Shown here one piece after another: positions 25,607-27,423 of a DNA stretch of 64,000 nucleotides. Both the position numbers and the translations under genes were made by a program. The notes under the pieces are model-generated. The model had not been told where the DNA came from. It searched no databases and was given only the letters and a program-made list of their open reading frames with translations. The first letter of the stretch is position 1. Each line of letters starts with the position of its first letter. Source of the stretch: Polyangiaceae bacterium (lineage in GTDB: Bacteria > Myxococcota_A > Polyangia > Polyangiales > Polyangiaceae); NCBI GenBank assembly GCA_044224495.1, contig JBGAKG010000027.1:93521-157520 (forward strand), written 5' to 3'.

Positions 25607-26272
25607 TCAGTGGCGGGTGATGGTCGTGAAGCCTTCGAAGCGACGCGCCCAAACGTCGTCGCGGAGTGCGTCGGCATCGGCCGTGATCGCGGCCATCACC
25701 GGATCGGGCTCGGCGCGCTCCTCGCCGCGCGCGACACGGCGAGGCTCGCCGATCGCGACGAAGATCTCGGGCCGCTCGTCCTCGATGAACTCGTAGCGAA
25801 CGACCACCGTCGAGAACGGCGCCTTCGAGCGCGCGGCGAGCCAGCTCGCGCCGGCGATGCTCTCGAGCGGGCGCTTGTCCATCGACTCCTGCTTGCCCTG
25901 CGGATAGATGCCGAGCCGCATGTTCGGCTGCTCGAGGAGCTCGAGCGCATGCCGCAGCGCCGCCGCCGAGCCGGCGCGCGTCGTCCGATCGACGCCGAAC
26001 GCGCCGATCCAACGCAGCCACGAGAGCTTCTTCAGGTTCGCCTCGTCCATCATCACGTCGTGCCGCGCGCCCGGGGGGAACCAGCGCCGCGACAGGTGAT
26101 AGATCACGAGCGAGTCCCACCAGGCGACGTGCTGGCACGCCATGATCACGGGGGCCGTCGGCGGCGGGAGGTTGCCCCGCACGTGCACGGCCGCGAAGCG
26201 CCGCCGGAAGAGGTTCTTCACGTACCAGCCGAAGGCGGTCTCGAACGCAGGCCAGTGCGCGGAGGGGATCAT
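25607..26272 (-). CDS. lysophospholipid acyltransferase (PlsC/LPLAT family)
   Basis: HVAWWD (HxxxxD) catalytic motif, FGVDR and IYPQG motifs; ATG at 26272 by codon count; 15 bp downstream of the ferritin-like gene on the same strand. Confidence 0.7.
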   Translation of the reverse strand: MIPSAHWPAFETAFGWYVKNLFRRRFAAVHVRGNLPPPTAPVIMACQHVAWWDSLVIYHLSRRWFPPGARHDVMMDEANLKKLSWLRWIGAFGVDRTTRAGSAAALRHALELLEQPNMRLGIYPQGKQESMDKRPLESIAGASWLAARSKAPFSTVVVRYEFIEDERPEIFVAIGEPRRVARGEERAEPDPVMAAITADADALRDDVWARRFEGFTTITRH

Positions 26273-26286
26273 GAGCGCGTCGGCGA

Positions 26287-27423
26287 CTACGATGACGACG
26301 AGCGGCGCTCCGCTCGCGAAGCGCTCGGAGCCGCGCTCGGCGGGACCGCGGGCGCCAGGAGCACCTCGGCCACGAGGCGGCCGACGAGCTCGCGGTGCGC
26401 GGGGCGGAGGCGCGCGATGCTCTCGAGCTCCGCGTCGAGCACGCCGCGCGTCCGCGGGAACGCGGAGAGCAACCAGCGCGCGGTCTCGAAGGCGAGCGCG
26501 GCGTGGCGCGCTTCGTCCTCGGCGATCCCGTCGAAGAGCTCGGCGAGCGCAGGGTGCTCGGCGGAGGCGGCGTGCTCGGCGGCCTCCGCGGCGGCGAGCG
26601 TCTCGCCGATGCAGCCGCCCCGAACGACGTCGCGCAGGAGATCTTCGGCGACGACCTCGGCGTCGCCGAAGCCGACGAAGGGGGCGACGGCTTCGGGGAA
26701 GCGCGCGGGCCCGAGATCGGCCCCGCCGAGGTGCGAGAGCCACGCGAAGCAGGCCCGCGCGTGGACGATCTCGTCGTGCAAGGCGCGCTGCGTCTCTTCG
26801 ACGAGACGCGGCGTCGCCCCGAGCGCGACGAGCTGGCAGATCGTCCGCGCGAACGAAGCGATGCTCGCGTGCTCTTCGCGTGCGCTGCGCGCGAAGACGT
26901 CGCGCCAGCGATCGCGGGTCGCGTCGTCGAGGACGGCGCTGGGCGTTGCGCTGCGCCAGTCGCCGCGCGGGGCGAGCCTGGCGACGACGGGTCCCCCGCC
27001 GACGTAGAGCGGGCGGCCCCCCATGATCGGCTCGTCCTCGCCGTGGCACGTCCCCGGCCGACCGGGGATGGTGTGGGCGCCATCGAAGGGGAGCGCGCAA
27101 CGCATGCCAGCGCCGCAGTCCGCAGCGGTCCAGCACGAAGCGCCACGCTTGCTCGCCCCCGCATCGCGAGCGGCGACCCGAACGGAGGGAGCCGCGGAGG
27201 CGCTTGCGATCGGGGCTGCGGAGGCGCTTGCGATCGCGGATGCGGGCGCGGACGCGGATGCGGTCACGGACGCGGACGCGGTCACGGACGCGGTCACGGA
27301 CGCGGACGCGGTCACGGCTGCAGGCGCGGTCGCAGCCTCGGGCTCACGCGCACACGCGAGGAGCGATCCGGCGACGGGAGCGGCAGCGAGATGCGCGAGG
27401 ATCAACGCTCGGACGGACTTCAT
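26287..27423 (-). CDS. ferritin-like di-iron domain lipoprotein with Ala/Ser/Thr/Val repeat linker
   Basis: Lipobox SLLACAREP; repeat linker (TASASVTASVTASASVTASAS); ExxH-type motifs (EEH, DEIVH, DEARH) suggesting a di-iron four-helix bundle. Confidence 0.6.
   Translation of the reverse strand: MKSVRALILAHLAAAPVAGSLLACAREPEAATAPAAVTASASVTASVTASASVTASASAPASAIASASAAPIASASAAPSVRVAARDAGASKRGASCWTAADCGAGMRCALPFDGAHTIPGRPGTCHGEDEPIMGGRPLYVGGGPVVARLAPRGDWRSATPSAVLDDATRDRWRDVFARSAREEHASIASFARTICQLVALGATPRLVEETQRALHDEIVHARACFAWLSHLGGADLGPARFPEAVAPFVGFGDAEVVAEDLLRDVVRGGCIGETLAAAEAAEHAASAEHPALAELFDGIAEDEARHAALAFETARWLLSAFPRTRGVLDAELESIARLRPAHRELVGRLVAEVLLAPAVPPSAAPSASRAERRSSSS
27190..27325. repeat. in-frame tandem repeats (GCGGAGGCGCTTGCGATCG x2; GACGCGGACGCGGTCACG units) encoding the AS/VT-rich linker
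   Basis: Direct inspection of 27193-27320. Confidence 0.6.

Follow-up and report, generated by a model that had tools for sequence, protein, structure and literature searches.

A predicted exported ferritin-like lipoprotein and an adjoining acyltransferase in a Polyangiaceae bacterium are probably unrelated in function

The window analysed here is a 64-kb stretch of a contig from a Polyangiaceae bacterium, in which the genes for a ferritin-like lipoprotein (FLP) and an acyltransferase (AT) lie side by side on the minus strand of a region with a G+C content of ~72 %. The FLP coding sequence (27423..26287) encodes 378 aa, as judged from the open reading frame (ORF), its translation and homologues whose alignment runs from M1 and C24 through to the C-terminus, whilst the AT coding sequence (26272..25607) encodes a 221 aa protein of the GPAT/PlsC fold. 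An earlier note on this DNA had given the coordinates and motifs of both genes correctly and had rightly described them as closely adjoining, but direct reading of the sequence placed 14 nt (26273-26286), rather than 15, between the FLP stop codon (TAG) and the AT ATG. The note had also proposed that the two products form a lipid hydroxylase/desaturase-acyltransferase pair, a coupling that was not borne out by comparative gene order.

The FLP N-terminus reads MKSVRALILAHLAAAPVAGSLLAC, and direct reading of its first 24 residues (27352..27423, minus strand) identified a Sec-type signal peptide in which MKSVR and a hydrophobic core are followed by an L-L-A-C lipobox ending at C24. This is the sole hydrophobic segment of FLP and it lacks a twin-arginine motif. 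The lipobox cysteine was aligned in 81/96 homologues, most of the remainder being fragments. With a signal peptide that ends in a lipobox cysteine, FLP conforms to the definition of a bacterial lipoprotein and its lipidation is predicted, in agreement with the earlier description of an exported lipoprotein with a ferritin-like domain. Residues 25-92 (27148..27351, minus strand) comprise a low-complexity tether of Ala, Ser, Thr, Val and Pro, which was delimited by the AlphaFold predicted local distance difference test (pLDDT), Tandem Repeats Finder (TRF) and homologue comparison. TRF resolved the tether DNA at 27194-27331 into imperfect tandem repeats that keep the reading frame (periods of 12, 18, 24 and 30 nt), and AlphaFold rendered the tether disordered (pLDDT <60 across the linker and <50 at residues 49-89). 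The tandem repeats of what had been noted as an AS/VT repeat linker are thus real, and both the length and the composition of the tether vary among homologues. Conservation and the AlphaFold model delineated a small Cys-rich beta module and a subsequent G136-R137-P138 strand (residues 93-160; 26944..27147, minus strand), with beta strands predicted in the module at a pLDDT of about 85-90. The cysteines of this module were highly conserved (C97 in 249/261, C103 in 242/257, C109 in 265/270 and C126 in 222/225 sequences), as was R137 (258/259), and the G136-R137-P138 strand was almost invariant. Such conserved cysteines are consistent with residence of FLP in an oxidising compartment.

The remainder of FLP is dominated by a ferritin-like helical domain (residues 165-355; 26359..26931, minus strand), modelled as six helices with a pLDDT of >90. 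The model placed the metal-site ligands E184 on helix 1, E218 and H221 on helix 2, E274 on helix 3, and E304 and H307 on helix 4. All of these residues (E184, E218-x-x-H221, E274 and E304-x-x-H307) were invariant in 266/266 aligned relatives. FLP displays the features that define class-I ferritin-like proteins, namely a four-helix bundle with paired long helices and an E, ExxH, E, ExxH set, and, judged by sequence and by position on the helices, no ligand of the canonical class-I two-metal carboxylate set is missing, so that the incomplete set which the earlier note had named as a refutation was not observed. Its mention of repeated ExxH motifs held for the two that are conserved (E218-x-x-H221 and E304-x-x-H307), but not for other E..H strings in FLP (e.g. 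EAAEH). Alignment of the family profile to sulerythrin matched GCIGE...AEDEARHA with GFIGES...AEGETAHA, thereby covering E274, E304 and H307 (E = 5e-4). Beyond the six metal ligands, H185 was also invariant (266/266) and C271, situated three residues before the ligand E274, was conserved in 256/266 relatives. The cysteine that accompanied C271 was C225 in 141 members and C196 in 38, whilst ~80 had neither; given this variation in partner residue, C271 is not simply one half of a fixed disulfide. FLP additionally carries D-E-x-x-H and D-E-x-R-H motifs (the latter at D303-H307); its W317 is almost invariant, and around the metal site many small residues are invariant.

Comparison of FLP with characterized di-iron proteins yielded likenesses at the level of fold. 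A Foldseek search of the PDB returned aldehyde-deformylating oxygenase (ADO) and R2-like ligand-binding oxidase (R2lox) as best neighbours, with acyl-ACP (acyl carrier protein) desaturase also represented and the longest structural alignments being to enzyme-type members, yet nothing was retrieved at E <= 1e-3 and the neighbours were generic members of the superfamily. Identity to the ribonucleotide reductase subunit RNR R2, ADO, VlmB and R2lox was just 9-20 %, without a family-level sequence match. These four proteins are cytoplasmic and reliant on reductase or ferredoxin partners; unlike them, FLP is predicted to be Sec-exported and of the lipid-anchored type, has a Cys-rich N-terminal module, and carries the additional invariant residues H185, R137 and C271. 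The family-level match and lipid-pathway context that would characterize a soluble acyl-ACP desaturase (PF03405) or another lipid-modifying di-iron enzyme were likewise not found for FLP. The best sequence-level match was to rubrerythrin/sulerythrin (PF02915), spanning FLP helices 2-4 for PF02915 and only helices 3-4 for sulerythrin. In the window FLP, this borderline hit was the only Pfam match; its 23.8 bits lie just above the cut-off of 22.8, and the profile is covered only in part. PF02915 was detected at E <= 0.1 in only 11/32 FLP relatives. We did not file FLP under rubrerythrin; it has no rubredoxin domain and differs from rubrerythrin in being an exported lipoprotein. Ferritin_2 (PF13668) shares with FLP a ferritin-like fold located outside the cytoplasm, but it matched only weakly in 3/32 relatives (best E = 0.002), none of which passed threshold. 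Exported ferritin-like families such as Ferritin_2 use twin-arginine signals and hence are exported folded, whereas FLP has a Sec/lipobox signal without the arginine pair, in addition to its tether and Cys-rich module.

An exhaustive profile search, in which representatives of 50 %-identity clusters were counted, recovered 12 006 family representatives at E <= 1e-3 and 4565 at E <= 1e-30. Most were 450-570 aa in length with longer Cys-rich N-terminal parts, and Pfam scans of ten such long-form members revealed no extra domain hinting at function. A separate scan of one genome per species gave at least 514 confirmed matches, of which the best 80 loci were inspected. These were almost all from Polyangia and Nannocystia, including Sorangium, Nannocystis, Enhygromyxa, Labilithrix and many metagenome-assembled genomes, and ten assemblies supplied two or three FLP loci each; the copies have diverged strongly in sequence. 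Pfam matches among relatives were scattered and sub-threshold (Rubrerythrin, FA_desaturase_2, DUF455, Phenol_Hydrox, Ferritin_2, AurF and COQ7), NCBIfam gave no match for FLP or its relatives, and database names were limited to 'ferritin-like domain-containing protein' or 'hypothetical'. A literature search found no study on exported or myxobacterial ferritin-like lipoproteins. Judged by its homologues, FLP is a member of a very large, predicted exported family of di-iron type for which we found neither a curated model nor a paper.

AT displayed the motifs HVAWWD (H48-x4-D53; 26114-26131), GAFGVDR (25985-26005) and IYPQG (25895-25909), passed the PF01553 model and has the GPAT/PlsC fold. The HX4D motif, blocks II and III, family model and fold together place it among the lysophospholipid acyltransferase (LPLAT) and GPAT/PlsC enzymes, as the earlier note had recognized. 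A sequence search against solved structures gave no meaningful match for AT, whilst a fold search succeeded. H48-x4-D53, G90-A-F-G-x-D95 and Q125-G126 were invariant in 16 AT homologues, but the block-II arginine (R96) was not, being replaced by leucine in three of them. In comparison with GPAT/PlsC lysophospholipid acyltransferases (PF01553; Thermotoga maritima PlsC, 5kym), AT differs in its block III, which is PQG rather than PEG, in the lack of conservation of the block-II arginine and in falling below the cut-off of the AGPAT equivalog TIGR00530 (30.9 bits against 102.95). No signal peptide or transmembrane segment was found in AT.

Association of FLP and AT was examined in both directions. 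For FLP, AT was sought within ~6 kb in the 80 inspected loci, all from other genomes. AT was near FLP in 1/80 loci, only that of the nearest relative (L001), and was not adjacent there. FLP relatives at 42-45 % identity were found downstream of unrelated genes (Lactamase_B_2 and dNK) with AT absent, and clustering of the flanking ORFs of the 80 loci brought up Ser/Thr kinases at 13 of them and, antisense ORF artefacts apart, nothing else, so that no other neighbour is conserved across the family. For AT, no FLP gene was present within ~6 kb in the DNA fetched around orthologues at 75 % (L084), 71 % (L081) and 64 % (L082) identity, nor in that fetched around relatives at 38 % (L093) and 31 % (L094), such that FLP was absent from 5/5 independent AT contexts. 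The two genes are thus not co-conserved in 79/80 FLP loci or in the five AT contexts, and neither adjacency nor co-occurrence across lineages marks them as a conserved module, an outcome that the earlier note had itself named as refuting its proposal.

The closest comparison was provided by L001 and the sister-clade contigs L086-L089, in which a SIMPL gene is followed in order by FLP, an opposite-strand gene for a 186 aa protein, AT, two further opposite-strand genes (one a methyltransferase), a 74 aa ORF and a DUF1993 gene. The opposite-strand genes of this lineage (L001 7057-7773 and 8476-9603, minus strand; L086 3201-3761 and 4600-6473, minus strand) encode hypothetical proteins of 186 and 274 aa and a methyltransferase of 343 aa, and the ORFs exhibit coding-type G+C by codon position. 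None of the three opposite-strand genes, the SIMPL gene or the 74 aa ORF occurs anywhere in the window. In the window, the DUF1993 gene (25546..25037, minus strand; Pfam DUF1993 E = 8e-54) is co-directional with AT and follows it. Its product shares 79 % identity with those of L001 and L086, in which DUF1993 and AT are separated by two or three other genes; the gene is syntenic with AT in the sister lineage and belongs to no demonstrated system. These comparisons show rapid local gene gain or loss around FLP, AT and DUF1993. In the absence of cross-lineage adjacency, and with genes missing relative to the sister clade, the 14 nt juxtaposition of FLP and AT is best read as a lineage-specific difference in gene content. 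The two genes also differ in divergence. Between the window and the sister clade, AT and DUF1993 were 78-80 % identical, whereas FLP was only 49-53 % identical overall and 60 % beyond the linker (residues about 90-330), indicating that FLP evolves much faster than its neighbours.

The genes surrounding the pair in the window encode a WD40 protein, a Ser/Thr kinase, a Cys-rich secreted protein, DUF1993, a methyltransferase, Si-specific NAD(P)+ transhydrogenase (Sth) and an HDOD protein. Pfam and NCBIfam scans of these window neighbours detected none of the lipid-biosynthesis genes that the earlier note had suggested seeking beside the pair. Similarly, no reductase or ACP gene occurs near FLP and AT, and the 64-kb window contains neither carotenoid genes nor a second FLP copy.

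The explanation we consider probable is that FLP and AT are functionally unrelated genes that abut only in this lineage and do not represent a conserved operon, with FLP an exported di-metal-type protein and AT an enzyme of the cytoplasmic side. Di-iron carboxylate centres normally work in the cytoplasm and depend on a reductase. FLP, however, would be Sec-exported and lipid-anchored, with a flexible tether of ~65 residues and the Cys-rich module leading into the six-helix domain. As its signal lacks a twin-arginine motif, the protein would be exported unfolded and would take up its two metal ions, Fe or Mn, once outside the cytoplasm. The resulting centre may then react with O2 or peroxide, with the substrate itself as the source of electrons. 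This substrate would most likely be Fe(II), as in a ferroxidase-type reaction, or alternatively a small organic reductant. A partner reductase linked to NAD(P)H is unlikely, since none would be present in that compartment and the neighbouring genes encode none. That the chemistry is specifically of the ferroxidase or peroxide type is a tentative proposal. AT, for its part, would act at the cytoplasmic side as a GPAT/PlsC-fold acyltransferase by means of its H48/D53 dyad. Several observations weigh against this explanation. FLP and AT share their orientation here across a 14 nt gap with no detectable terminator and are probably co-transcribed in this genome, although a scan of 24900-27700, which returned no promoter-like or terminator-like sites, is uninformative at 72 % GC. 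Both genes have been kept within ~750 bp of each other in the sister clade, and the loci inspected for AT were the best 80 of at least 514. Furthermore, the best Foldseek neighbours of FLP, ADO and R2lox, bind fatty acyl chains, and the D-E-x-R-H motif is typical of O2-activating enzymes.

The last two observations bear on a different role for FLP, in which it would resemble ADO, R2lox or VlmB as an O2-activating oxidase or oxygenase, take an envelope lipid or a hydrophobic small molecule as its substrate and work independently of AT, with paralogues diversified in substrate. The D-E-x-x-H and D-E-x-R-H motifs, the near-invariant W317 and the invariant small residues around the site all favour such a role, as do the longest structural alignments, which are to enzyme-type members, and the presence of several strongly diverged copies in at least ten sampled assemblies. 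We nonetheless regard it as rather unlikely, given that no electron-donor partner is apparent outside the cytoplasm, no neighbouring gene is conserved and no Foldseek match reached E <= 1e-3.

With respect to AT, the relatives at 31-38 % identity, which are the only ones with informative gene context, sit in carotenoid clusters (L093 3544-10414 and L094 1456-4555) with the gene orders CrtI-CrtB-AT-GT2-CrtC-CrtD and CrtB-x-AT. CruD, the acyltransferase of carotenoid glycoside esters, is located in carotenoid clusters (PMC7414004), and these arrangements suggest that a CruD-like carotenoid-glycoside acyltransferase clade exists within the LPLAT group to which AT belongs. AT may by extension be a CruD-like enzyme that acylates a glycoside, for instance a carotenoid glucoside, as opposed to a lysophospholipid acyltransferase, and the non-conserved R96 and a TIGR00530 score far under the cut-off are in line with this. 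The idea is an unlikely one: carotenoid genes are lacking both in the window and beside the AT orthologues at 64-86 % identity, an identity of 31-38 % does not fix the substrate, and the comparison with CruD is one of gene context.

The module envisaged in the earlier note, in which FLP and AT would jointly synthesize an unusual myxobacterial or ornithine-lipid-like lipid as hydroxylase/desaturase and acyltransferase, draws on the shared strand and 14 nt spacing, the complete ligand set, the inclusion of acyl-ACP desaturase, ADO and R2lox among the structural neighbours, and the proximity of both genes in the sister clade. We judge it highly improbable in view of the missing co-conservation set out above and the opposite-strand gene that separates FLP from AT in the sister clade. 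The exported FLP and the AT without an export signal are also predicted to occupy different compartments, and no reductase, ACP or other lipid genes are nearby. To our knowledge, moreover, none of the known ornithine-lipid hydroxylases is a ferritin-like lipoprotein. A hydroxylase-acyltransferase module should accordingly not seed pathway predictions from this locus.

A short cytoplasmic FLP product that is neither exported nor a lipoprotein, as implied by P0001, the public call of 245 aa that begins at M134 and omits the signal peptide, lipobox, tether and Cys-rich module, is barely credible, since the ORF extends upstream with an N-terminus that aligns with homologues through the signal peptide, lipobox cysteine and Cys-rich module, the near-invariant C97, C103, C109, C126 and R137 lie upstream of or beside M134, and the sole contig found for P0001 ends inside the longer ORF, to which it is 100 % identical as far back as residue 46, where the contig stops. 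We conclude from the alignment of the upstream part that the 378 aa form is real and the public call too short; with such a call, annotation pipelines would overlook FLP as an exported lipoprotein.

Under the favoured explanation of two unrelated genes, the broader relevance of the locus lies with the FLP family, which appears to combine a strictly conserved canonical site of di-iron type with a predicted extracytoplasmic, membrane-tethered location and multiple copies in at least ten sampled assemblies. An exported family of this size poses the biochemical question of which metal, oxidant and electron source are used. One speculative answer, to which we attach a low probability, is that FLP typifies a hitherto undescribed, very large family of di-iron (or Mn/Fe) oxidases that are tethered to a membrane outside the cytoplasm and activate O2 there without an NAD(P)H-linked partner. 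Here H185, R137 and C271 would constitute a variant of the site not seen in characterized di-iron enzymes, and the paralogues would differ in their substrates, which would come from the envelope, from prey or from the environment.

Upstream of FLP, a gene for an LCM/TIGR00027 S-adenosylmethionine-dependent methyltransferase (27499..28278, plus strand) diverges from the FLP gene over a 75 bp spacer and is convergent with the Sth gene (28275-29681, minus strand), its stop codon overlapping the 3' end of the latter by 4 nt. On the other side, near AT and DUF1993, a Cys-rich secreted protein of 214 aa (24388-25032, plus strand) had no match in Pfam or NCBIfam. Its gene is syntenic in the sister clade, where the product is only 48-49 % identical as against 78-80 % for the cytoplasmic genes on its flanks, the same pattern as seen for FLP. 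Further away, a 676 aa ORF (31004-33034, minus strand) matched the Pfam Major Vault Protein (MVP) shoulder (E = 9e-27) and a Vault_3 repeat (E = 1e-6), and looks like a bacterial MVP-like protein.

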